Positions 38,879 through 59,394 of a stretch of DNA of 60,111 bases are shown here, one piece after another. The position numbers and the translations under genes were made by a program. The notes beneath the pieces were generated by a model. It had not been told where the DNA came from. It saw nothing but the letters and a program-made list of their open reading frames with translations, and ran no database searches. The stretch comes from Allosphingosinicella sp. GTDB taxonomy: Bacteria; Pseudomonadota; Alphaproteobacteria; Sphingomonadales; Sphingomonadaceae. The first letter of the stretch is position 1. Each line of letters starts with the position of its first letter. The stretch spans positions 1 through 60,111 of the forward strand of contig JBKJZJ010000214.1 in NCBI GenBank assembly GCA_046715355.1, given 5' to 3'.

Positions 38879-40306
38879 CTAGCTCGAAGCGCCCGAGCGC
38901 GAGCTGTTGGCTAACGGATTCCCGCCCATCGCCTTGAAAAGGTCAATGGCAGCTTCAAGCCGCTCCTGAAGCGCCACGGCCCTTGCATCCTCCGCTTCGA
39001 CAAGCCGTTGCTCAGCATCGAACAGGCGCTGCAGATCCGCTTCACCTTCAATATATTGCAGCCGGGCAAGCCGAGCTGTCAGTCGCGCCTCCTCCAGGAC
39101 CTCGATTAGCAAAATCTCTCTGGCTCGCGATCGGTCGACAGCCGTCAGTGCGTTTTCAACTTCGGCAAGCGAGGTCAGCAACACTTGCCGATAAAGTTCG
39201 ACACTCTCCACCTGGCGTGCCGCCGAGAGCTCGAGATTCGCCCGCAGCCGCCCGCGGTTGAAGATCGGCGCAAGCAGGTCGGCGCCGATCGCAAAGGTGC
39301 TGCTCAACGGCCCGGACAGGCTGGCCGCCTGCCCGAGCGCGCTCGCGTTCAGCCGGATGCGCGGAAAGAAAGCGGCGCGTGCTTGTTGGACGTCGCCGCC
39401 CGCGGCGTCGATCCGCGCTTCGGCGGCGCGAATGTCTGGCCGACGTATGATGAGCTCGCTCGGCTGGAGTGTCGCGAGGGTCGGCGGCGTCAGGGAGTCG
39501 AGCGAGGCCGGGGATAGCTGGAAGCGCGGCGCTTCCTCGCCGACGAGGATCGCCAGAGCGGTTCGCGTCCGGTCGAGCGACTGATCGAGGCGCAGCCTCT
39601 CGGTCTGCAGCTGGCGCACCTGGATCGTCTGCAGGCCGAGATCCACGCGCGTCGCGTCGCCGGCGTTCAGCCGGGCACGAATGATCCGCTCAAGCTCGAG
39701 CGCTTGTTCGACGTTCCGGTCCAGGAGGGCGATCCGCGCCGCCAGCGTGGCGCGCTGGACGTAGACGCGCGCGACGTCGGACTGGACGACGAGCAAGGTG
39801 GCGTCGCGGTCGAACTCGGCGGCACGCAGCCGATGCCGGGCCGCGCGGCGCTCGGCGCGGCCGGCTCCGAACAGATCGATGTCGAATGAAATATCTATCC
39901 CGCCGAAGGCATCGCTGAAGTCGAATGGATCGCCGGTGCGCTGGGTTCGCGTGCCGCTGAGGCCGGCGGAGCTGGTGACGACGGGAAGCATGGTGCCGCG
40001 CGCGGCACCAAAGAGGGCACGGGCCTGGCGGATACGCGCCTGGGTGATGCCGATGTCGGTATTGGCGGTCGACGCGCGCGCGAGCAGGCCTTCGAGCTCG
40101 GCCGAGCCGAGCGCCGCTCCGAGATTGGGGGCGCGTGATGCGGAAACCAGGTCGGGCGCGGCCGACGTCACTCCCTCCGCGCGGCTCCATTGGGTCGACA
40201 GTAATTCGGGCGCGACCTCCAGTCGGGCGTGCGGAACGCAGCCGGCCGCGACCAGCGGCACGAGGAAGCGCATGGCAGCGCGGCGGCTTTCGATCATCTT
40301 GCCCAT
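38879..40306 (-). CDS. Outer membrane factor lipoprotein (NodT/OprM family)
   Basis: Lipobox AAGC, FDIDLFG, RRPDIRAAE, APIFNRG. Confidence 0.93.
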   Translation of the reverse strand: MGKMIESRRAAMRFLVPLVAAGCVPHARLEVAPELLSTQWSRAEGVTSAAPDLVSASRAPNLGAALGSAELEGLLARASTANTDIGITQARIRQARALFGAARGTMLPVVTSSAGLSGTRTQRTGDPFDFSDAFGGIDISFDIDLFGAGRAERRAARHRLRAAEFDRDATLLVVQSDVARVYVQRATLAARIALLDRNVEQALELERIIRARLNAGDATRVDLGLQTIQVRQLQTERLRLDQSLDRTRTALAILVGEEAPRFQLSPASLDSLTPPTLATLQPSELIIRRPDIRAAEARIDAAGGDVQQARAAFFPRIRLNASALGQAASLSGPLSSTFAIGADLLAPIFNRGRLRANLELSAARQVESVELYRQVLLTSLAEVENALTAVDRSRAREILLIEVLEEARLTARLARLQYIEGEADLQRLFDAEQRLVEAEDARAVALQERLEAAIDLFKAMGGNPLANSSRSGASS

Positions 40307-40455
40307 CGGCCCCGAACTAGCGGCGTTCGGTTAATTTTGGCTAAGCCATCCCGCCCGGCCCGAATCGCCGCACCCAATGGTTCGGATGCGATTAACCGGC
40401 TTTTTATGTCTCGCCGCTACCTGCCGATGCTCACTGATCGAACGTGTTGCGGGGC

Positions 40456-41688
40456 ATGAACAAACAGCTTTTCCGAATGGAAGTGATCGATGCGGGCCGC
40501 GAGCGGCTGGCCGGCACCGTGGTTGCGGCGGTGCCACCGTCGTCCCGTCTCTACACAGGACTGCTGCTCGGCGTCGCCGCGATAATCGTCGCCATCCTGA
40601 TCTTCGGCAGCTACGCGACCAGCGCACGGGTGCGGGGAATCGTCGCCTATGACACTGGGATCGCGCGCGTATATCCCTCGACGCCCGCGGAGATCCGGCA
40701 GATTCACGTTCGCAACGGGGAAATAGTGCCTGCGGGCGCGCCGCTCGTTACTCTCTCTCTCGCCCAGGGTATGAACGGCGTCTCCGGTCAGCTGGCTCAG
40801 CTCGACAATCAGGACGCGGAACTGGCCCGCCAGATCGATCTAGCCGCCGACATCGGAACTGCCGAGGGTCAAAGGCTTGCACAGCAACGCACAAGCCTCG
40901 CCGCAGCGCTCTCGTCCCTGGAACGCCAGCGCGGCATTGCCGCCGGCCAAATCAGACTTGCCGAATCCGCGACGCGGCGTGCGGTGCAACTGGCGAGACA
41001 AGGGGCCGGCACGCAGCGCCAGGTCGAGGACAGCCGCTCGGCGCTCCTGGCGCGCCGCGCCGAGGTGGAGTCGCTCACCGAGCGGCTGATCACCCAGCGC
41101 GAGGCCCTGGCAACGACCGAGGCCCAAATTGCGCAGCGAACGCTGGAGACCAGCCGCACGCGCTCCGTTCTGCTCGCCCAGCGCGCGGCGCTGGCCGAGC
41201 AACGCGCCGAGCTCTTGCGCACCGATCGGCTGGTGCTGACCGCGCCGATCGCCGGCGAGGTCGGCGATGTCAGCGTCGAGGTCGGTCAGCGCGCCAGGCC
41301 GGATCAGTCGCTGGTCACGATCGTTCCACGCGATAGCCGCCTCGAAGTCTGGCTTTACGCGCCGTCGAGCGCTGTCGGTTTCGCACGACCAGGTCAGCAG
41401 GTGCGCCTCCTGTTCGATGCATTCCCCTACCAGAAATACGGCGCCGGGCGGGGCACCGTGACCGCGGTCTCTCGGGTGTCTACCGAGCCCAGCAACCTCG
41501 ATACGAACCTCGGCATAGAAGAACCGGTCTTCCGTATCCGAGTCCGCATCGACGAGATGGCGCCGCGCGTCCCGGCCGACCAGCGCGCGATGCGGCCGGG
41601 CATGACGCTCAACGCCCATCTCGTGCAAGAGCGGCGCAGCCTGTGGCAGGTGCTGTTTGGGCCGGTAATGGGGGCGCTGAGCTCGTGA
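40456..41688 (+). CDS. HlyD/CvaA/RaxA-type membrane fusion protein
   Basis: LFRMEV N-terminus, DAFPYQKYG, RPGMTL...ERRSLWQVLF. Confidence 0.93.
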   Translation: MNKQLFRMEVIDAGRERLAGTVVAAVPPSSRLYTGLLLGVAAIIVAILIFGSYATSARVRGIVAYDTGIARVYPSTPAEIRQIHVRNGEIVPAGAPLVTLSLAQGMNGVSGQLAQLDNQDAELARQIDLAADIGTAEGQRLAQQRTSLAAALSSLERQRGIAAGQIRLAESATRRAVQLARQGAGTQRQVEDSRSALLARRAEVESLTERLITQREALATTEAQIAQRTLETSRTRSVLLAQRAALAEQRAELLRTDRLVLTAPIAGEVGDVSVEVGQRARPDQSLVTIVPRDSRLEVWLYAPSSAVGFARPGQQVRLLFDAFPYQKYGAGRGTVTAVSRVSTEPSNLDTNLGIEEPVFRIRVRIDEMAPRVPADQRAMRPGMTLNAHLVQERRSLWQVLFGPVMGALSS

Positions 41689-43829
41689 GCGCGATCCAGT
41701 GGCCCTGGTCGCAGCGCATGCGTCCGCTGCTCCAAACCGAGGCGGCGGAATGCGGCCTGGCGTCGGTCGCTATGATCGCCCTCCATTACGGCCACCGCGT
41801 CAACCTGTCCGGCCTGCGCCAGCGCTACCCCACTTCTATCAAGGGCACCACGCTCGAACAGCTCATGGCGGTCGCCTCGGACCTGGAGCTGGCGCCGAGG
41901 GCCGTTCGGCTCGAGATCGACGAGCTCGGCAAGTTGCGGAAACCCGCGATCCTCCACTGGGATCTCAACCACTTCGTGGTGCTCGAAAGCGCCGGCCCCA
42001 AGGATGTGGTGATCCTCGATCCCGCGGTCGGCCGCCGAAGGATCTCGCTTGCCAAGTTTGGCCGCCACTTTACCGGTGTGGCTCTCGAGCTGACGCCGAC
42101 CTCGGATTTCCGGCCGATCGAGGCGCGCACGCGTACCCGGCTGAAGGATCTGTGGAGCCGGCTCACCAATTATCGTGGCGCGCTCATCCAGATTCTGTCG
42201 CTGTCGCTGCTGCTTCAGCTCACCGCGCTCATCGCGCCCCTCTATCTCCAACTGGTCGTCGACGAGGCGATCGGCCAGGGCAATGGCGGCCTGCTGCTCA
42301 TCCTGCTGATCGGGTTCGGCGTCGTCTACCTTCTGGGGGCGATCACCCGCGCCTTGCGAGAATGGGTGGTGCTGACGCTCGGCGAATCGCTGACCTTCCA
42401 AATGGGCGGGAATGTCGTCCGCCATCTCGTCCGCCTGCCGCTCGCCTATTTCGAGCGGCGCCACGTCGGGGATCTCCTGTCGCGGGTCGATTCGATCAAG
42501 CCGATTCAGTCGCTGCTTACCCAGGGCCTCGTCAACGTCCTGATCGATTCCGCCCTGATGCTCACGACCTTGTTCGTGATGGCGATGATCAGCCCGCTGC
42601 TGGCTCTCCTCGTCCTTGGTCTCACCGTCCTTTATCTGGTCTTCAGCCTGCTCCTCTATCCAGGCTTGCGGCGGCGCACCGAAGAGGAAATCATGGCGCG
42701 CGCCAACGAAGAAACCTATTTGATGGAGACGATACGCGCGATCCGCGCCATCAAGCTCCACGGCCACGAGGCGACGCGTGAGAGCGGCTGGCGCAACCGT
42801 TACGCCGAAGTCATTTCCGCCGCCTACCGCTCGCGAATCTACGACATCCAGCTCACCCTCGCCGAGAACTTGCTTTTCGGTCTGCAATTGTTGCTGATTG
42901 TCTACCTGGGCGCATTGGCCGTTCTCGACCAGCGCCTTACCGTCGGCCTGCTTCTCGCCTTCCTCGCCTACCGGAGCAGCTTCACCGGGAGCGCCGCGTC
43001 CTTGGTCCGGCAGCTGCAGAAATGGCGTCTTCTCAGTGTCCATCTGGAGCGCCTCTCCGACATTGTCGGGGAAAAGCGCGAGGATGTGCGCGTCAGTCCA
43101 CGTCAAGCGCTCCTTCCCGGGCCGGCCTTGCGGATCGAGGAGCTGACCTTCGCCTACGGCCCCTCGGAGGCGCCGATCTTCGAGAAGCTGAGTTTCGAGA
43201 TACCGTCGGGCGCGATGGTCGCCATCGTCGGTCCGTCGGGCGCCGGCAAGACAACCCTGATGCGCGTCCTGCTCGGCCTGCTGCCGCCAAGCTCGGGAAA
43301 GGTTCTGATCGACGGCGTTCCGCTCGGGCCGGCGACGATGGCCGCCTGGCGCGGTAGGATCGCGGCAGTGATGCAGGACGATTACCTCCTGACCGGGACG
43401 TTCGCCGACAATATCGCCTTCTTCGATCCGCAGCTCGACGATCGGCAGATCGAGCAATCGGCGCGGCTGGCCTGGATCCACAGCGACATCCTCCAGATGC
43501 CGATGGGCTACCAGAGCCTGGTCAGCGACATGGGGGTGGCGCTTTCGTCGGGTCAACGGCAGCGGATCTTGCTGGCGCGCGCCCTCTATCGCGACCCCGA
43601 CGCCCTCTTTCTCGACGAGGGAACGGCAAATCTGGACGAGGAGACCGAGGCCAGGATCGTACACATGATCGCGGCGCTGCCGTCGACCCGCGTGGTGATC
43701 GCGCACCGGCCGGCGATGATCGAGCGCGCCGATATCGTCCTGCGCCTCGACCAGGGCCGGCTGGTCGCCCAAGCGCGGCCGGCGAATGCCCTGCCAGCGG
43801 GGCGAGCAATCGTGCCGGATGGAGCATAA
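41685..43829 (+). CDS. Peptidase C39-containing ABC transporter (PCAT, CvaB/RaxB-like)
   Basis: QTEAAECGLA (Cys), HWDLNHFVV (His), ILDPA (Asp); GPSGAGKTT, LSSGQRQR, LDEGT. Confidence 0.96.
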   Translation: MSAIQWPWSQRMRPLLQTEAAECGLASVAMIALHYGHRVNLSGLRQRYPTSIKGTTLEQLMAVASDLELAPRAVRLEIDELGKLRKPAILHWDLNHFVVLESAGPKDVVILDPAVGRRRISLAKFGRHFTGVALELTPTSDFRPIEARTRTRLKDLWSRLTNYRGALIQILSLSLLLQLTALIAPLYLQLVVDEAIGQGNGGLLLILLIGFGVVYLLGAITRALREWVVLTLGESLTFQMGGNVVRHLVRLPLAYFERRHVGDLLSRVDSIKPIQSLLTQGLVNVLIDSALMLTTLFVMAMISPLLALLVLGLTVLYLVFSLLLYPGLRRRTEEEIMARANEETYLMETIRAIRAIKLHGHEATRESGWRNRYAEVISAAYRSRIYDIQLTLAENLLFGLQLLLIVYLGALAVLDQRLTVGLLLAFLAYRSSFTGSAASLVRQLQKWRLLSVHLERLSDIVGEKREDVRVSPRQALLPGPALRIEELTFAYGPSEAPIFEKLSFEIPSGAMVAIVGPSGAGKTTLMRVLLGLLPPSSGKVLIDGVPLGPATMAAWRGRIAAVMQDDYLLTGTFADNIAFFDPQLDDRQIEQSARLAWIHSDILQMPMGYQSLVSDMGVALSSGQRQRILLARALYRDPDALFLDEGTANLDEETEARIVHMIAALPSTRVVIAHRPAMIERADIVLRLDQGRLVAQARPANALPAGRAIVPDGA

Positions 43830-43833
43830 GAGA

Positions 43834-44799
43834 ATGAACGCGCAACCGATTCCAAGCCGCCGCCATGCGCGGGACATTCCGCAGCATGAGGAAATCTGGC
43901 TTCTGGGCCAGCCGCCGCTGCAGGGCTATCTCGAGTTCGTGGAGGAAATGGCGATCGCCGACGGGTCGGTCGCCCGTGCTACCCTCGTAGACGAATGGCG
44001 CGCGGCAAACGATTATTACGGGGAGCTCGAAGAGACCGAGGCCGGCATCGCGGACGAAGTGGAGATATTCGACATCGATCCAGCCCTTCAGCCGCTGGCG
44101 GACGCGGTCGCGGCCGATCCTCGATTCCGCCGCGCATTCGACACCCTGCCGACCCGCTTCGCGATGGTCGAGATCGACCGGCTGGTGGTCGGTCATCCGT
44201 ATGTCAGCCGGGATCATATCGACAGGATATGCACTGGGATCGGTTCCGCGCCGACCCCGGAGGCACTGTTTCATTTCTGCCAGCCGCTCGACCGCGTCGA
44301 GGCTCCGGTGCAGGTCCGCAAGACGGGGGCCCATTCTTATATGTTCTGGTCGGCGTCCAGCGACTTCCGCTACCAGGAGACCGAGCTCCTGCGCGCGGCG
44401 CAGATTGCCGGATACGAACCGCTCGGGCCTCTCGGCGGAATGGTCGGCGTTATGGTCGGATTCGGCTCCAACTTCGTGAACGCCATCCAGTCCGACGACC
44501 GGCTGCTTTTGCACAACGGCCACCATCGGGTTTGCGCGCTGCGCGCGCTCGGTATCACCCACGCGCCCTGCATCGTGCAGAGCGTGACCCGGCTCGACGA
44601 GCTCAGACTCGTTGCCTCACGCTCGGTTCTGGACGATCCCGCTTTCTATTTTCGGTCGAAACGCCCGCCGCTCCTGAAGGATTTTTTCGACCCCAGGATC
44701 CGCAAGATCGTGCCGGTTCGCAGCATGGCGAACGTGGTCGAGGTCTCGATCGAGGTCAAAGAGCTAAAGAAGACGAGGGACTTCGGCGGCACGGATTGA
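43834..44799 (+). CDS. ParB/sulfiredoxin-fold protein without HTH
   Basis: LLLHNGHHRVCALRALGITHAPCIV matches the ParB/Srx GxHR motif; 4 nt after the PCAT stop. Confidence 0.7.
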   Translation: MNAQPIPSRRHARDIPQHEEIWLLGQPPLQGYLEFVEEMAIADGSVARATLVDEWRAANDYYGELEETEAGIADEVEIFDIDPALQPLADAVAADPRFRRAFDTLPTRFAMVEIDRLVVGHPYVSRDHIDRICTGIGSAPTPEALFHFCQPLDRVEAPVQVRKTGAHSYMFWSASSDFRYQETELLRAAQIAGYEPLGPLGGMVGVMVGFGSNFVNAIQSDDRLLLHNGHHRVCALRALGITHAPCIVQSVTRLDELRLVASRSVLDDPAFYFRSKRPPLLKDFFDPRIRKIVPVRSMANVVEVSIEVKELKKTRDFGGTD

Positions 44800-44887
44800 T
44801 TCACCGAAAAGCGCGGGCCCCGCGCAGGCTTGCGCGGAGCCGCTACCGGCGACCCCGCGCATAACCCAGAGCAATGGTGGATCGGCC

Positions 44888-45061
44888 TTAGCTGCTGCCA
44901 CCCCGGCCGCGACCGCGGCTGCCGCTGCTGCCGCCACGGCGGCCGCTGCCGCTACCGCTGCGGCCCTTGCACTTGTTCTTGCGCTTGGGAGGCCGGGGGG
45001 ACTTGCCCTTGCCGCCGGCGCCATAGACCTGGGTCAGTTCCTCTTTGAAAAGATCGCGCAT
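44888..45061 (-). CDS. 57-aa GA-leader precursor peptide A with cationic G/S/R/K core
   Basis: RBS acaggagat; MRDLFKEELTQVYGA|GGKGKSPRPPKRKNKCKGRSGSGSGRRGGSSGSRGRGRGGSS. Confidence 0.85.
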   Translation of the reverse strand: MRDLFKEELTQVYGAGGKGKSPRPPKRKNKCKGRSGSGSGRRGGSSGSRGRGRGGSS

Positions 45062-45330
45062 TTCGCATCTCCTGTTTACGACGACTCGCGGCGCGGATGA
45101 GCGAACGAGAGCGCCGACACTCGACCATCTCGAATTGCGCGGGCCTTGGCCAGTGGCGAAAAAGACCCAGTCCCGGATTGGTACACCGCCTGCTCCAAAA
45201 GTTGTTGAAGTCACATTTGCCAGCGCGCGGAAGCCTTTAACCAAGCCGAAAAGGATGCTGACCTAAAGAAGGCGATCAGGGCCCCCGCCTTCCGCGCAGA
45301 ACGAATGCGCGAGCCACCGAAGGGACGAGC

Positions 45331-46062
45331 GTGATCGAGTTTCGTATCAACCCCAATCTCGACCTGGAATCTCTCGCGCGTGCCTATGCGGCGGATGGTC
45401 GTGTCCGCGTCTATAGCCTGCTCGCCAATGACGATGTCGCCGCGCTGCTCGATGATCTGGCCGCCAGGGACGATTGGTGGCATTTGATCAATACGCCCGA
45501 CGGCATGATCGAGCTCGATCGCGCCGCCCGCGCCAGGATGAGCGCGAAGCGCCTGGCAGCACTCGACAGCGAAGTTCACGCCCGCGCCCGCACCGGGTTC
45601 CAATACCGTTATGAGGCGCTCCGCGTGCCCGACGACGAGGACGAAGAGGCGGAGGGCGAGGACGCGTTGTCCGACTTCGCGGAGCTGATGTCGTCCGAGC
45701 CGATGCTCGATGTGCTGCGGGCGATCACCGCTTGCACCGACCTCACCTTCACCGACGGGCATGCGACCGCTTACGGCCCGGGCGATTTCCTGACCTGCCA
45801 TGACGACGATGTCGCCGGCAAGAATCGGCGGGCCGCCTACGTGTTCGGCCTGACCCGGAATTGGCGGCCGGAATGGGGTGGGCTGTTACTGTTCCACGAC
45901 GACAAGGACAGGACGGTGGCGGGCCAGGTGCCCGGATTCAACACTCTCGACCTGTTCGCGGTGCCGCGGCGCCACAGCGTGTCGATCGTGACCCCGGCCG
46001 CGCCCGCTCGCCGCTACGCCGTCACGGGCTGGCTTCGCGCGGGCGCGCCTGGGGCGCGGTAG
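45331..46062 (+). CDS. 2OG-Fe(II) oxygenase, prolyl hydroxylase-like
   Basis: FLTCHDD (HxD), WGGLL, RHSVS (His), RYAVTGW (Arg). Confidence 0.9.
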   Translation: MIEFRINPNLDLESLARAYAADGRVRVYSLLANDDVAALLDDLAARDDWWHLINTPDGMIELDRAARARMSAKRLAALDSEVHARARTGFQYRYEALRVPDDEDEEAEGEDALSDFAELMSSEPMLDVLRAITACTDLTFTDGHATAYGPGDFLTCHDDDVAGKNRRAAYVFGLTRNWRPEWGGLLLFHDDKDRTVAGQVPGFNTLDLFAVPRRHSVSIVTPAAPARRYAVTGWLRAGAPGAR

Positions 46063-46215
46063 GGTCTGATCATCGCTCCGCGTGATTGCGGGCGCGGTAG
46101 TGATCATGCTGACTGGCTGGCAGTGGGTGGACGCAAGCGCGGCCATTCTCCAACGGGGTGTTTCAAAATGAGATGCGGTCTTCACCCGAATTTCACGGCG
46201 GCAGCGTAAGCGCCC

Positions 46216-46608
46216 TTGGTGGAAAATCTGCGTCCAATCCCTGCGGTGTTGATCAGCATCGAACCTGGCGCGAATGCCCAGTTCCGGCGCAGGTTGATTC
46301 TTGGCCAGGGCATAGCTGGCGCGACCGAGAGCGCGGTCCGTGTTATCGATATAACGCCGAACTTCTCCGTTATTGTGGGGTTTGGGAAGCCGCCAAGCCA
46401 AGCTGCCCAGGTGTGGTTGAAACTACCCGGACGGGAGCCCTTGAAGGTATTGGCATTCGCGGAATCAGAAGGCTGCTTGACGTGCCAATTTCTGCAGCCG
46501 TTGCGCGATGGTGAATTCGTAGCAATAGTCGGCAGTCCCCCAGCACAGGGTGCGGGCGGCCCGCGGGTCCACCCACGATGCACTATTCTTCGACCGTCGG
46601 ATGGTTAG
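46216..46608 (+). CDS. Possible degenerate PilZ-like protein
   Basis: VRVIDITPN...VWLKLPG...CQFLQPL weakly PilZ-like. Confidence 0.35.
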   Translation: MVENLRPIPAVLISIEPGANAQFRRRLILGQGIAGATESAVRVIDITPNFSVIVGFGKPPSQAAQVWLKLPGREPLKVLAFAESEGCLTCQFLQPLRDGEFVAIVGSPPAQGAGGPRVHPRCTILRPSDG

Positions 46609-47118
46609 GAGGAGGCGCGGCGCGCATTGCCAACGTGCGACTGTATCGGACGGCCCGCGCCGCGGCGGCTGCCAGTCGGGGGCGCAACCTGACCGGAGGC
46701 TGCCATTCCCGCCGAAATGATCGCCAACCGCGTGCCAGGTTATGAGAAGGCCCTAAATCACCCTGACTGCCGCCCGCTGAACGTTCGCACATGGCGTGCA
46801 CGAAGATTGCCGATTCAATGCCCTTCGGCGAGTAGCTGGCGCACCAGATGCTCGCGCCCCGCGATCTGGCCGGCGAGGCGCCCGGCCCAATATGACACGC
46901 GCCGAATGGTTCGCCGCCCGACGGTCGTGGATGGAACAACGTGATGCATCGAGGCGGCAACATGGCCGTCGTGGCCACTAACACCTAAGCGATCACCCCC
47001 GCGGAAATGGCCTTCTTCAGGTCTTCGACGGGGACCTTGTGATAGCTCGGGAGGCGGTCAAGAGTCGCCTTTGATCCTGCAACCGTTCGCAGTTGATGGC
47101 GCCGGCGCACTGCCGCGC

Positions 47119-47487
47119 CTATCGATTCAGAAACTCAGCCCAATGGCGTTCCAGCTGCCGAGAAAGCTTCTTGACCGGCTTGTGCAAGGGTGTCGCGGCG
47201 GACCCGGCGGAAGTCTGGCCTGGTGTTCGGAACTCATGGAGATTCAACGGGTCGACAAATTCGATGCCGATCCTTCCGTCATCGGCCCAAGCTATCCGCG
47301 CTGATACGCTGAGATCGCCGCGAGAGATCTGGACTTCGGTGCCTGGCGCGACGAACCCGGGATATTCAGCACACGCTCCCAGGCTGGACAGGTTCGTGAG
47401 CTTCACCTCGACGTCGCCGCAATCCCAACTCAGCATAGCGGTCAGAAAGACACGGTCGCGCTTGTCTCGCCGGTGCTCGACATTCAT
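47119..47487 (-). CDS. PilZ-domain protein
   Basis: RRDKRDRV (RxxxR), NLSSLGA (D/NxSxxG), ARIAW...IGIEF. Confidence 0.85.
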   Translation of the reverse strand: MNVEHRRDKRDRVFLTAMLSWDCGDVEVKLTNLSSLGACAEYPGFVAPGTEVQISRGDLSVSARIAWADDGRIGIEFVDPLNLHEFRTPGQTSAGSAATPLHKPVKKLSRQLERHWAEFLNR

Positions 47488-47844
47488 GGTGCGAAACCTT
47501 CAGCTCATTCCTTGGCGAACGCTCGCCTTAAGCGGAAAAACCTGTGTTTCGATTAACGGCTCAGCGCCGCCGCGCCACAGCGCCGTTTCGGCGTCAGTTG
47601 GTCCATCGCTCTCTCTCGATCCCCCTCAGACGGGGCGGGACCCTTTGCCGAAAATGCCCCCTTCATCTCCCCGCGTCCTAGCTGGCAGACGGGCCATGGC
47701 GCAAGGCCCCCACATGTCGGAAGGGGATAGGCGTCGAAGGTTTGCGTGCCGGCGAGCCCACGGAAGCGCCTAGATCAGCAATGATCGAGGCGTTTCCTGA
47801 TACGCGGCTTGCGCCGGCTCACGTGACTGGAAATACCGCGCTGA

Positions 47845-48027
47845 TCAGCGAGGGCCCCTGGGCCCGGAGTTCCAAGTCGTCAATTGAGGGTTGTGGGCGC
47901 CGGAATTGCCGGGAGGCGGACCCGATTCAGCACCGTTGCCATAGCCATTATTGTTCTTGCTGCGTGTGCAGGACGAGGAGCCGGCTCCGCTGACGAGCTT
48001 GAGCTCGAAGTCGTGAAGATCGCGCAT
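47845..48027 (-). CDS. 60-aa GA-leader precursor peptide B with N/G/P/S-rich core
   Basis: RBS acaggagat; MRDLHDFELKLVSGA|GSSSCTRSKNNNGYGNGAESGPPPGNSGAHNPQLTTWNSGPRGPR. Confidence 0.85.
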   Translation of the reverse strand: MRDLHDFELKLVSGAGSSSCTRSKNNNGYGNGAESGPPPGNSGAHNPQLTTWNSGPRGPR

Positions 48028-48326
48028 TGGAATCTCCTGTTGGGGAGCTTTTTTCAACTCCCATCGACCGCCATCTCCGGCGGCACGCGCCTGACTGACA
48101 GCGGAAATCGAGTTCAACAAACGCAATTATTCGGGCGTCCCCGTTCGGCACATTCGATGTCCTGTTCATGTCCGACTTGGGCGCAAATCAGACGTTCGCA
48201 GCGGGTGACCAATCTCCTCTGTGGGTCATAGTGTGGGAGAGGCTGACAAACCAGCATAACATTTCATCGACTATCAACTGGTTAGGCTCAGCCATGCTGT
48301 GGATGATGTGTCCGCCGAACCGGGAA

Positions 48327-50136: not shown

Positions 50137-50159
50137 ATATCGCGCTGGTGGACAGGGCT
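50137..50159. repeat. att site direct repeat, tRNA-proximal copy
   Basis: Identical to 16463-16485. Confidence 0.92.
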
Positions 50160-50232
50160 GGATTCGAACCAGCGTACGGGAAACCCGGGCAGATTTACAG
50201 TCTGCTGCCTTTAACCACTCGGCCACCTGTCC
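50146..50232 (-). tRNA. tRNA-Tyr(GTA)
   Basis: GGACAGGTGGCCGAGTGGTTAAAGGCAGCAGACTGTAAATCTGC...GGTTCGAATCCAGCCCTGTCCACCA with long variable arm. Confidence 0.97.
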
Positions 50233-56439: not shown

Positions 56440-59394
56440 ATGGACGGGACCGCCCAGTTTTCCAATTCCGTCGGCAATGTTGACAGCCTTCCTGCATGTC
56501 GCAGGCGAACGCGGGAAGCCGCCAATTGGTCGGTCGACGACCAACTTTGGATGGGGCGAGATTTCCCCGCCATCGATACCGGCGCGGCGGCGGCTCGTCC
56601 GGTCTCCGGCCACAAAGCGGCCGACCCTGCGGCCGCTGCCCCACCCGGCCAGGCTGCGGGTGCCCCGGTCGCAAACCCGTTACCGGATCAGACGTTCCTT
56701 GAGGACGAGGCCTGGAGCTTCCAGCTCCCGGTGGACGCTTTCACCGACCCTGATGGAGACCCGCTAACCCTCACTGCGACATTGTCGACGGGCGACCCAC
56801 TGCCCGACTGGCTGACCTTCGACGCCAGTTCCCGCACCTTCACAGGGGTGCCGCCGAGAGATTTCAACGGCCAGCTTTCGATCCTCGTGACGGCCAGCGA
56901 CGGCGAGAGCGCGGTTTCGAGCGGCTTTTCGCTGTCGGTCCTACCGGTCAATGACGCCCCGGTGGCCAATTCGTTGCCGGATCGGGCATCCCCCGAGGAC
57001 CAGGCCTGCAGCTTCCAGCTCCCGAAGGACGCGTTCACCGATCCCGACGGCGATCCGCTGATTGTTACCGCCACGCTGGCGAACGGGGATGCGCTGCCGG
57101 ACTGGCTGACCTTCGACGCCGGCACCCGCACCTTCACCGGCACGCCGCCACGGGACTTCAACGGCGCGCTCTCGATCCTCGTGACGGCCAGCGACGGCGA
57201 AAGCGCGACCTCGAGCCCCTTTTCGCTGTCGATCACCCCGGTCAACGACGGCCCGGTCGTAACCCTGGCCCCGATCTATGCGAGCGATTTCGAAAGCCCC
57301 GACGAGGCGCTGTGGTTCACCACGATCGGCGGCGACTCGCCCATCCCGCTCCCGCATGAAGATGACGGGACCGGTAACATGACCCTGGTTTCAGCGGGCC
57401 CATGGTGGACCGACCTCAACCACGTCACTCCGGGCACCGGACAGCTGCATCTTCCGTCGACGCTGTACGTCAATGGCAGCAACGGCGGCATCGTGATCGA
57501 TGACTTCCGGGATCTGACGTTCAGTTTCGATATCAAGGCGGAAGGGCTGCAGATACCGGAAGGCGCTCACATCTACCTCTGGTTCCAGGCAATGGACCCG
57601 ACCCTGCCCTGGGGTGTCGGCCAATATGTGAATTATGTTAACGTCAGCGTCCCGGTCGAGGAATTGCTGATCGACGGCGAGTTTGCGCATGTCAGCATTA
57701 CCCTGTCGCAGGTCGAGGCCGACTGGCTGGCGCTGGGTTCGAGCCTGGACCGCGAGGGCGTCTATTCCCAATCCAGCTCGATCGTCACAGCCCTTTCCGG
57801 GATTCCTGTCGGTCTGGGCCTGGTCATCTTCATGGGCAACGAACCGTCGGGTCCTCCCGCCTCGGGCCTGATCCGGCTCGATAATGTCGTATTGTCACAT
57901 GGCGATGTGATCAGACTGAAATTCGCTCCCGAGGCGCTGGCCGGAGGGTTGCAGCCCCTGCATCTCGATGTGGCGGTAACGGACCCGGACAGCTCCACGT
58001 TCGAGAATTATCGCCTGTCCGTCGGCTATCAGGGGGTGGGTCTCTCCGGCGAAGAGCTCGGCCTGGCATTTCCGGGGGGCGGCGATCTTACGACTGTCGA
58101 CGGGATCCTTTATCTGGGTGCAGAGCAGATCGGGACCGTCGCGGGCGGGTCTAACGGCAGCGCGCTACTGATCGAGATCACCGCGCCGGTGGATTCGGCG
58201 GTCATCAGCGACGTCATCAACGCTATCGCCTACGGGAATAATGACGCGGGGGCCGGCGCGACGCGGGATCTCGTCGTCACGCTTGACGACGAGCCGGGTA
58301 GGACGGCCTCCTTTGCCGTCGAGGTTAGTGCGCGACTTCCGCTCGACGACGGCTCGGGGAACGACCACCTGATCGGGACCGGCGCGAACGAGGCGCTGAA
58401 CGGCGGTCTCGGGACGGACAGGCTGGAGGGCGCCGCCGGCGATGACCGCCTTGATGGTGGTACGGGCGATGACATCCTCCATGGCGGAAGCGGGGACGAT
58501 TGGTTCCACGTGGACAGCGTCGGCGATATCGTGAGCGAGAGCATCGGAGAGGGTTCGCAGGACCGCATCTTCGCGAGCGTCAGCTACGTGCTGGCCGCCG
58601 GCGCGGAGGTCGAAATCCTGACCACCATATTCAACGCGGGGCTGGAACCGATAGATTTGACCGGCAACGAGCTCGCCAACACCATCTACGGCAATGCCGG
58701 TGCCAACCGGCTTGAAGGCGGCGCGGGCAAAGACGCGCTGATCGGCAATGAAGACGACGACATTCTCGACGGCGGCACCGGCAACGACATTCTCGACGGC
58801 GGCACAGGCAGCGACATTCTCCGTGGCGGGATCGGCGACGACTGGCACTTCGTCGATAGTGCCGGTGACATCTTGATCGAAGCAGTTGGCGAGGGAACGC
58901 TGGACCGGGTGTTCGCCAGCGCGAGCTACACGCTGTCGGCCGGCGCCGAGATCGAGTTGATGTCGACGACCCTCCACATCGGACTCGATGCGATCAATTT
59001 GATCGGCAACGAGCTCGCCAACGCGATCTACGGCAATGCCGGCGCCAACCGGCTTGAAGGCGGCGCGGGCAACGACGCGCTGATCGGCAATGAAGGCGAC
59101 GACATTCTCGACGGCGGCACCGGCAACGACATTCTCCGTGGCGGGATCGGCCGCGACACGTTCCTGTTCTCGCAAGACACGGGCACCGATCGCATCATGG
59201 ACTTTTCCGTCGCCGGGTCCGACCATGATCTGATCGCCTTGCCGGGTCTGAGAACCGGGACCCTCGCGGCGTTTATTACCGAACATGTCAGCCAGATTGG
59301 CGCAGATACCATGATCTCCTGGAACGGCGCGGAGCTGATCCTGGTCAATGTGAACGCCTCGACTCTGCTGCCCGACCACTTCGTCCTGGGGTAG
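56440..59394 (+). CDS. Secreted RTX protein with two Ig/cadherin-like repeats
   Basis: Two FTDPDGDPL...LPDWLTFD repeats; many GGxGxD nonapeptides; T1SS-type C-terminus; true start may be 56551. Confidence 0.92.

Follow-up and report, generated by a model that had tools for sequence, protein, structure and literature searches.

The closest described counterpart in architecture is the RaxX system of Xanthomonas (RaxX/RaxST-RaxA-RaxB-RaxC). According to the available text of 10.1101/442517, it comprises a peptide with a GG-type leader that is hydrophobic at positions -4, -7 and -12, one tailoring enzyme, a periplasmic adaptor, a C39 peptidase-containing ATP-binding cassette transporter (PCAT) with a Cys-His-Asp/Asn triad and an oxyanion Gln, and an outer-membrane factor (OMF) that is often unlinked. 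Here we describe a locus of the same architecture at positions 38879..48027 of contig JBKJZJ010000214.1 from Allosphingosinicella sp., analyzed over 60,111 nt (the window). Unlike the RaxX system, it has no sulfotransferase and instead encodes a protein of the ParB/Srx fold; its leaders are minimal, at 15 residues, and where RaxX is a conserved Tyr-sulfated mimic, the cores here are a variable Ser/Lys/Gly repeat. The system is very probably a pathway for a peptide that is made on the ribosome and modified after translation (RiPP), and likely a new RiPP class. The explanation that we prefer, with a probability of roughly one half (0.52), is that the ParB/Srx-fold protein is a kinase of the precursor peptide that is joined by an accessory oxygenase and by C39-dependent export.

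Proteins of the ParB/Srx fold are so far known as CTP clamps, as free-serine kinases and in peroxiredoxin repair. The non-DNA members SerK, SbnI and sulfiredoxin (Srx) are described in the available texts of PMC12704722 and PMC5120207 as using the fold as a nucleotide-binding module for phosphoryl transfer, which in sulfiredoxin is directed onto a protein side chain (PMC12704722). The peptide cores have likenesses of their own. Low-complexity His/Ser/Lys repeats are also a feature of the His-Xaa-Ser (HxsA) system, and one core matches its model NF038313 at E 3e-7, below the cut-off (31 versus 55 bits). The HxsA system has radical SAM (rSAM) partners; no rSAM gene was among the recurring neighbours scanned here. 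Diatom silaffins consist of Ser/Lys/Gly-rich repeats that, in the native proteins, carry phospho-Ser and hydroxylated or alkylated Lys, according to the available text of PMC3806462, and these modifications parallel those predicted below for a kinase and for its FemAB and 2-oxoglutarate (2OG) oxygenase accessories. This likeness is one of composition, and no homology is claimed; silaffins are eukaryotic and polyprotein-derived.

Exporter and precursor genes of the locus

The genes and sites of the cluster are as follows.

43834..44799, + strand: ParB/Srx-fold protein, 321 residues, unannotated family, predicted class-defining tailoring enzyme; P motif N228-G-H-H-R232
44888..45061, - strand: class-1 precursor (peptide 1), a 15-residue leader ending VYGA and a 42-residue Gly/Ser/Lys/Arg-rich core with SPRPP
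45067..45075, - strand: ribosome-binding site (RBS) ACAGGAGAT of peptide 1
45331..46062, + strand: 2OG-Fe(II) oxygenase, OGFOD1/PHD prolyl-hydroxylase type, precursor-linked clade; H157, D159, H215, R228
47845..48027, - strand: class-2 precursor (peptide 2), a leader ending VSGA and a 45-residue core with NNNGYGNG...PGNS, no SPxPP
48032..48040, - strand: RBS ACAGGAGAT of peptide 2
41685..43829, + strand: PCAT with Peptidase_C39, ABC_membrane and ABC_tran domains; Pfam C39 E=2e-32
40456..41688, + strand: membrane fusion protein (MFP), HlyD type; Pfam HlyD_3 E=6e-17
38879..40306, - strand: OMF, NodT/TolC type; Pfam OEP E=2e-38, TIGR01845 above cut-off

An initial annotation of this DNA had proposed two short open reading frames (ORFs) with a common RBS and a common 15-residue leader, MRDLxxxELxxVxGA, and this pairing proved correct. 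The site ACAGGAGAT, which occurs nine times in the genome, lies 4-5 nt ahead of the ATG in both ORFs. Across six frames of the 306 contigs of the 3.03-Mb assembly, only peptides 1 and 2 match the strict leader pattern; a loose pattern adds two further ORFs, both without an RBS of the ACAGGAGAT type. Both peptides have the double-glycine features L4, L9, V12, G14 and A15 (hydrophobic residues at -4, -7 and -12, G[GA] at -2/-1). The five residues are conserved across 145 class-1 and 26 class-2 homologues, collected with a pattern that itself requires the L4, L9, V12 and G[GA] positions and leaves position 13 free. The proline motifs that the annotation had listed are present, PRPP in peptide 1 and PPP and GPRGPR in peptide 2. 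The two peptides fall in different classes and are probably not modified alike.

The annotated OMF, MFP and PCAT with an intact Cys-His-Asp triad are confirmed by Pfam and NCBIfam models and by an alignment in which PCAT residues Q17, C23, H96 and D112 line up with the protease domains of LahT, ComA and PCAT1. This PCAT is the sole C39 match in the assembly and very probably cleaves and exports the peptides. In agreement with the annotation, none of 11 scanned ORFs of the cluster and its surroundings matched a lanthipeptide, YcaO, rSAM or sulfotransferase model. LanB, LanC, LanM and LanKC enzymes were absent from the window ORFs and from the 32 recurring neighbours scanned, as was tyrosylprotein sulfotransferase from the window ORFs and recurring neighbours scanned. 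In four DNA runs, contigs cover the region piecewise and none spans it whole, and no RNA data set was listed as containing the stretch.

Linkage of the ParB/Srx-fold family with class-1 precursors

The ParB/Srx protein, paired with Ser/Lys-rich cores, is the class-defining gene of the system. It has no match in Pfam, PHROG or PADLOC, and none to a Pfam ParB or helix-turn-helix (HTH) model; against the NCBIfam SerK model NF053625 it scores 19 bits, under the cut-off of 380. The Atlas offers only unnamed clusters, the nearest named one, ParB-CE, standing at 0.75. An AlphaFold2 model (predicted local distance difference test 90) retrieved nothing in Foldseek at E<=0.001. In a VIA structure comparison the best 8 of 48,161 rows are all ParB/Srx proteins, with Atu1540 at Z 6.8 (root mean square deviation (rmsd) 3.9, 107 aligned). 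A second comparison gave Atu1540 at Z 7.0, sulfiredoxin at 6.9 (rmsd 2.8, 97 aligned), SerK at 5.6, ParB CTPases at 5.1 and SbnI at 4.5, and the top 33 rows of a PDB comparison are likewise all ParB/Srx, with Z<=7.0. Because these moderate Z values are consistent and the GxxR motif is retained, we assign the protein to the ParB/Srx fold, as the annotation had done. The phosphate motif takes the form N228-G-x-H-R232; among 120 sequences with a median identity of 32%, G229 and R232 are conserved at 98% and G229/H231/R232 at 94-98%. Residues W55, Q121, D177, R179, N213, R223, R277, P278 and D283 are also near-invariant, position 121 being Gln across the family and His in the subgroup of the window protein.

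The family shares with the free-serine kinases SerK and SbnI the common ParB/Srx core without an HTH and the GxxR motif, and its match to SerK is weak in sequence (E 0.005) as to both in structure (the Z values above). Two elements set it apart from them, a helical region at the N-terminus and a beta insertion (~residues 137-210), and it does not keep Glu30 or the Asp of DGHHR; in the available accounts SerK and SbnI act on free Ser only. Family membership with SerK/SbnI was rejected on the missed cut-off and on two replacements, Glu30 by Gln/His121, in a register read by eye from the alignment, and the DGHHR Asp by Asn228. Sulfiredoxin, among the best structural matches, differs in residue and in context: position 230 of the GxxR motif is S, T, Y or H and never Cys, and the neighbourhood speaks of peptide export, not peroxiredoxin repair. 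In sulfiredoxin the catalytic Cys sits at the GxxR position equivalent to 230. A canonical ParB CTPase clamp was also rejected, there being no HTH match and no recurring ParA cluster, with the exporter and the precursor as the recurring neighbours; a defence role was dropped when PADLOC and PHROG gave no match. Segment 51-85 has a median charge of -7 in the close family versus -3 in distant relatives, which fits a polybasic substrate. The beta insertion has a weak likeness to alpha-crystallin domains (Z 2.1-2.3), a lead only, and a PqqD-like RiPP recognition element fold was not among the VIA matches listed for the whole protein, its N-terminal part and insertion not having been folded separately. 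Co-folding of the enzyme with ATP/Mg and precursor residues 1-34, run without controls, scored 0.00 and is evidence for neither side.

The protein has 830 relatives at 90% clustering, and a profile search (E<=1e-30) gave at least 353 clusters at 50% identity. The annotation had suggested a survey of small ORFs near homologues of 43834..44799, and from 215 genome loci and 369 metagenome loci we took 80 each, 160 enzyme loci in all. An MRxLxxxELxxVYG[GA] precursor lies <=900 nt upstream of the enzyme in 105 of the 115 loci with >=700 nt of room; of the other ten, four have the precursor elsewhere in the locus, one is cut by the contig start and five have none. Where at least 4.5 kb of downstream sequence is available, a C39 PCAT is present in 79 of 82 loci, and so is an HlyD-type MFP homologue (79/82). 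The usual gene order is precursor, enzyme, MFP, PCAT. Enzyme and class-1 precursor are linked one to one, and the wide joint occurrence of enzyme, precursor and PCAT, on which the proposal of a PCAT-linked, RiPP-like system with double-glycine leaders had been made to depend, supports it.

The enzyme-precursor unit extends over about six phyla. Its hosts, going by record titles, include alpha-, beta- and gammaproteobacteria, Polyangiaceae, Gemmatimonadaceae, Planctomycetota, Eisenbacteria and Dormiibacterota; many of these records are metagenome-assembled genomes, whose host labels may err. The distribution is patchy: only 2 of 400 genomes of its own phylum match, both with distant homologues, and context searches for the distant subfamily returned one viral contig and none of 250 further genomes of another phylum. 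Among 150 relatives, which are kin and not independent, the enzyme is found in 23 genomes, with one additional 28% homologue (genomes G069 and G080 count as negatives here, G069 is excluded from motif counts, and neither is needed for any claim). An independent DNA pattern for the Tyr-containing leader matches 24 of the 150, covering all 23 enzyme genomes; in the extra genome, which is 63% complete, the match falls at the end of a contig. Reversed as a control, the pattern matches none of the 150. In a FastTree phylogeny of 107 sequences, one clade of 86 (support 0.81) holds all 78 enzymes with a confirmed precursor link, and the lasso-linked and context-free sequences and 17 distant ones lie outside it; L035, truncated and with an unconfirmed precursor, is not among the 78.

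Short repeats such as GSK, SKS, STKK, NSNS and HSH make up the 145 unique class-1 cores, in which Gly accounts for 27% of residues, Ser for 23%, Lys for 18%, Arg for 8% and His for 6%. They are hydrophilic, with almost no aliphatic residues and a median net charge of +11. At least three Ser/Thr occur in every core (145/145; median 11, up to 21). Pro is lacking in 84 and Cys in 34, the remaining 111 cores having Cys, in 78 within the last four residues. Tyr at leader position 13 marks 140 of the 145 class-1 precursors versus 0 of 26 class-2 precursors, which suggests that the enzyme may recognize it, a role to which we give even odds.

No second enzyme is universal in the 160 loci, and no lyase or cyclase gene recurs. 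FemAB/GNAT genes are present in 24 of the 160, a 2OG oxygenase different from that of the window in 9 and the window-type oxygenase in 4. The FemAB/GNAT products may aminoacylate Lys of the cores; one such gene, of the FemA/FemB family, follows precursor-enzyme-HlyD-PCAT on pMNOD02 of Methylobacterium nodulans ORS 2060 (L283, 5686-11812). The second oxygenase, Pfam-negative with an Atlas score of 0.95-0.96, stands beside mostly Pro-free cores (L024:13347-14237; also L004, L007, L020, L027, L035, L044, L091 and L092) and is a candidate Lys or Asn hydroxylase. No immunity gene recurs among neighbours of >=120 aa, shorter genes not having been clustered; two-component genes adjoin 8-12 loci and leave a signalling role possible. 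Several loci stand apart. One Massilia locus has the ParB-fold gene in two tandem copies (L021:6853-8882), a Defluviicoccus locus has a second precursor, possibly of a third class, whose core is acidic and rich in Asp, Cys and Gly and whose leader is of the non-Tyr kind (L014:6559), and two of 13 scanned distant enzyme-domain members are fused to methyltransferase-like or GT25 domains (P0189, P0197), which is uninformative.

The accessory oxygenase and class-2 precursors

The identification of a prolyl-hydroxylase-like 2OG oxygenase held up against sequence and structure relatives: all 35 solved-structure relatives are prolyl hydroxylases, as are nearly all top structure matches. Like OGFOD1/Tpa1, PHD (EGLN) and Pseudomonas P4H, it keeps HxD...H...R; unlike them, it belongs to a precursor-linked sphingomonad clade that tracks SPxPP in short secreted-type peptides. 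Twenty-one precursor-linked oxygenases form this clade (support 0.997), apart from 16 without a precursor. S-P-x-P-P occurs near the core start in 22 of 23 oxygenase-adjacent precursors versus 9 of 158 others, one Asp-rich precursor having been removed from these counts by a composition filter. By class, the motif is found near the oxygenase in 5 of 5 class-1 and 17 of 18 class-2 precursors, and elsewhere in 9 of 143 class-1 and 0 of 15 class-2 precursors; for three of those nine, the oxygenase lies further off in the cluster or genome. The other motifs of class-2 cores are distributed inversely, PPP-type motifs occurring in 2 of 18 beside the oxygenase versus 12 of 15 without one adjacent, and GPRGPR in 3 of 18 versus 12 of 15.

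These distributions suggest that the oxygenase probably hydroxylates Pro at SPxPP. Because it tracks SPxPP and not PPP or GPRGPR, only peptide 1 (SPRPP), whose start is 270 nt from the oxygenase, is its predicted substrate in the window; peptide 2 is 1.8 kb away and, lacking SPxPP, may be exported unhydroxylated. Of the proline motifs that the annotation had tied to the oxygenase, PRPP stands, as part of SPRPP, and PPP and GPRGPR do not, being depleted beside it. Hydroxyproline as the core chemistry was likewise not upheld, given the window-type oxygenase in 4 of 160 loci and the Pro-free majority of class-1 cores; the oxygenase is an accessory of the system. An H5/F7 leader signature considered as directing it was discarded, since class-1 precursors beside the oxygenase mostly lack the signature.

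Class-2 precursors, with the invariant core NNG[FY]GNG...PG.S, are found in 19 of 23 enzyme-positive relatives, often standing alone, and directly downstream in 14 of the best 20 oxygenase regions fetched from relatives. Many class-2 genes have no ParB-fold enzyme or oxygenase of this type within 1.5 kb, and in one relative (L270) a class-2 precursor adjoins the exporter and no ParB-fold gene was found. The NNGFGNG...PGNS module is tandemly repeated in longer proteins (P0123-P0126, P0129), two of which have RTX calcium-binding repeats. Because of this tandem recurrence we take it for a probable mobile module of secreted proteins and not for a site on which these enzymes act; neither a family model nor a paper was found for it. 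Peptide 2 belongs to a precursor class of its own and probably borrows the exporter. All seven genes are also present in a cultured model, Blastomonas sp. RAC04, whose plasmid pBSY18_3 has a collinear run of class-1 precursor, ParB-fold enzyme, oxygenase and class-2 precursor, followed by PCAT, MFP and OMF (L286, 1334-8704). Massilia, Microvirga and Noviherbaspirillum isolates also carry the system.

Proposed chemistry, locus history and implications

Taken together, a model for the pathway emerges. The ParB/Srx-fold protein would take phosphate from a nucleotide donor and transfer it to many Ser/Thr residues of the class-1 precursor, the accessory 2OG oxygenase would hydroxylate a proline within S-P-x-P-P, and the C39 transporter would cut after the GA of the leader, the core leaving through MFP and OMF as a zwitterionic phospho-Ser/Lys polyelectrolyte. 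We propose phosphorylation because the plausible acceptors that every core contains are its hydroxyl residues and because the non-DNA members of the fold transfer phosphate; catalysis on Ser/Thr, with phosphorylation as its outcome, is favoured by a narrow margin over even odds. A distant setting was also counted for Ser/Thr phosphorylation: a 33% ParB-fold homologue is divergent from a lasso A-B-C cluster with ABC transporter and TonB receptor (L287:8921-12845 and L288:8791-12696; genomes G511 and G301), and the lasso core ends Thr-Thr-Ser-Pro. Lasso kinases modify the C-terminal Ser. An extracellular polyelectrolyte is preferred to a signal or toxin because the cores are low-complexity and fast-changing and no receptor or immunity gene recurs; a role as extracellular material, in adhesion or in metal or mineral binding is our guess. 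A fuller version, of a multi-phylum RiPP class in which a ParB/Srx-fold enzyme is the first of that fold to be recruited as a leader-guided peptide kinase, and in which densely phosphorylated Ser/Lys/Gly repeats with interchangeable FemAB (on Lys) and two 2OG accessories form a secreted silaffin counterpart for adhesion, matrix or mineral templating, is improbable as a whole.

Several observations weigh against a peptide kinase. Gly and Lys/Arg are no less universal among the cores than Ser/Thr, the structure matches have moderate scores (Z under 8) and function does not follow from a common fold. In the family the SerK base Glu30 is Gln121 (His here) and DGHHR is NGxHR, and because Glu30 and the DGHHR Asp are replaced, a SerK-type mechanism does not carry over; Glu30 was identified from PDB titles as the residue mutated in the SerK E30Q/E30A structures. 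No precursor is seen in five enzyme loci that have at least 700 nt upstream, distant homologues from two other settings lack both a precursor and a PCAT nearby (L267, L282), and the lasso linkage is a single event within one genus (2 of 201 genomes). Tyr13 has five exceptions among the 145 and a further one in the Blastomonas class-1 precursor, and the SPxPP statistics come from related sphingomonads and are not independent. The available text of PMC5120207 reports SerK as inactive on Ser inside peptides, and that of PMC12704722 holds that nucleotide binding and specificity in this fold are not predictable from sequence or co-folding.

The replaced SerK base and Mg-site acidic residues, with the additional invariant W55, D177, R179, N213, R223, R277, P278 and D283 that suggest a remodelled site, would also suit a class-defining ParB/Srx protein with another nucleotide-dependent chemistry, be it phosphorylation and then elimination that leaves dehydroalanine, to which Cys may or may not add, nucleotidylation at Ser/Thr, or backbone or Lys activation. 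The frequent Cys near the core C-terminus points the same way, and we consider such chemistry the foremost competitor, if clearly less probable than phosphorylation: 34 cores are Cys-free, no lyase or cyclase recurs in the 160 loci, and up to 21 Ser/Thr in low-complexity repeats suit repeated simple addition over defined rings. That the protein does not modify the peptide, and either activates accessory oxygenases or, as a nucleotide-switched chaperone, shields its polycationic cargo before export, seems unlikely. Its acidic helix and the +11 median charge of the cores speak for a chaperone, and a ParB homologue can be a non-catalytic activator, of a 2OG dioxygenase, in the available text of PMC13229309. 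Against this, an oxygenase of either type occurs in only 13 of 160 loci, a chaperone has no need for Ser/Thr in every core, and polar catalytic-type residues are invariant down to ~30% identity.

The initial annotation had both peptides processed alike, hydroxylated at PRPP, PPP and GPRGPR and given a second modification. The Pro motifs in both peptides, their common leader and RBS, and the single gene run of Blastomonas sp. RAC04 with both precursors and both enzymes would agree with it; the depletion of PPP-type motifs and GPRGPR beside the oxygenase, the absence of SPxPP and Tyr13 from peptide 2, and the many class-2 genes without such an enzyme within 1.5 kb make it very unlikely. Least probable by far are unmodified class II bacteriocins or microcins with passenger enzymes next door, as which the double-glycine leaders, the PCAT/MFP/OMF export, the cationic cores and the mobile-island location could be read: the one-to-one enzyme-precursor linkage contradicts them, as do the lack of a recurring immunity gene (neighbours of >=120 aa) and the hydrophilic cores that are almost devoid of aliphatic residues.

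The surroundings of the cluster include these further features.

16463..16485: 23-bp direct repeat of the tRNA-Tyr 3' end, likely the far island boundary
50137..50159: partner 23-bp repeat, overlapping the 3' end of tRNA-Tyr (50146-50232, - strand)
44811..44825, - strand: terminator-like hairpin 3' of peptide 1, weak (5 sites found versus 6.2 expected by chance)
46216..46608, + strand: 130-residue ORF of unknown family, PilZ-like by eye only
47119..47487, - strand: PilZ-domain protein, probably incidental; Pfam PilZ E=6e-5

The cluster likely sits inside an ~34-kb island at tRNA-Tyr that also contains an integrase remnant, type III restriction-modification genes, a TIR-like effector, a UvrD helicase, a Ser/Thr kinase, a ClpB-like AAA protein and an M48 peptidase. 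Just outside its boundary lies a TIR-domain protein (14658-16223), and a 984-residue RTX/Ig/cadherin-like protein is encoded at 56440-59391. Two relatives have transport genes with 72-84% identity to those of the cluster and an enzyme that shares only 46-47% identity and faces the opposite way, and the window enzyme groups with non-sphingomonad sequences in the tree (support 0.996); enzyme replacement at the locus would explain the odd gene order, an arrangement that L081 has as well. The PilZ gene and the PilZ-like ORF lie between the two peptide genes. That ORF has no match in Pfam, NCBIfam or PHROG, and its homologues (37-39%) adjoin the class-1 precursor in two relatives (G029, G082). A sigma-70 promoter was sought at the locus and none was found.

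RiPP classes are counted as new when their enzymes are new. With an architecture of the RaxX type, the enzyme class is, as far as found, likely new to RiPPs. RefSeq labels the enzyme and precursors on four plasmids as hypothetical, and cluster names are almost only 'hypothetical protein'. No description of the enzyme or peptide class was found in Pfam, NCBIfam or the literature searched, subscription journals lying outside this scope and the supplements of PMC12704722 possibly listing members; in its available text, that survey defines its set by PF02195, which the window protein does not match. Cultured hosts, Blastomonas sp. RAC04 and Methylobacterium nodulans ORS 2060 among them, allow direct testing, and a bacterial peptidyl prolyl hydroxylase that can be put to the test follows from the SPxPP rule. 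If the proposal is true, an enzyme tolerant of hypervariable cores, perhaps installing many phosphoserines, would be a practical tool for phosphopeptide and biomaterial engineering. For the ParB/Srx fold itself, peptide modification would then be an added function, in a family whose close clade is accompanied by an evident substrate, a leader of 15 residues and an exporter of its own.

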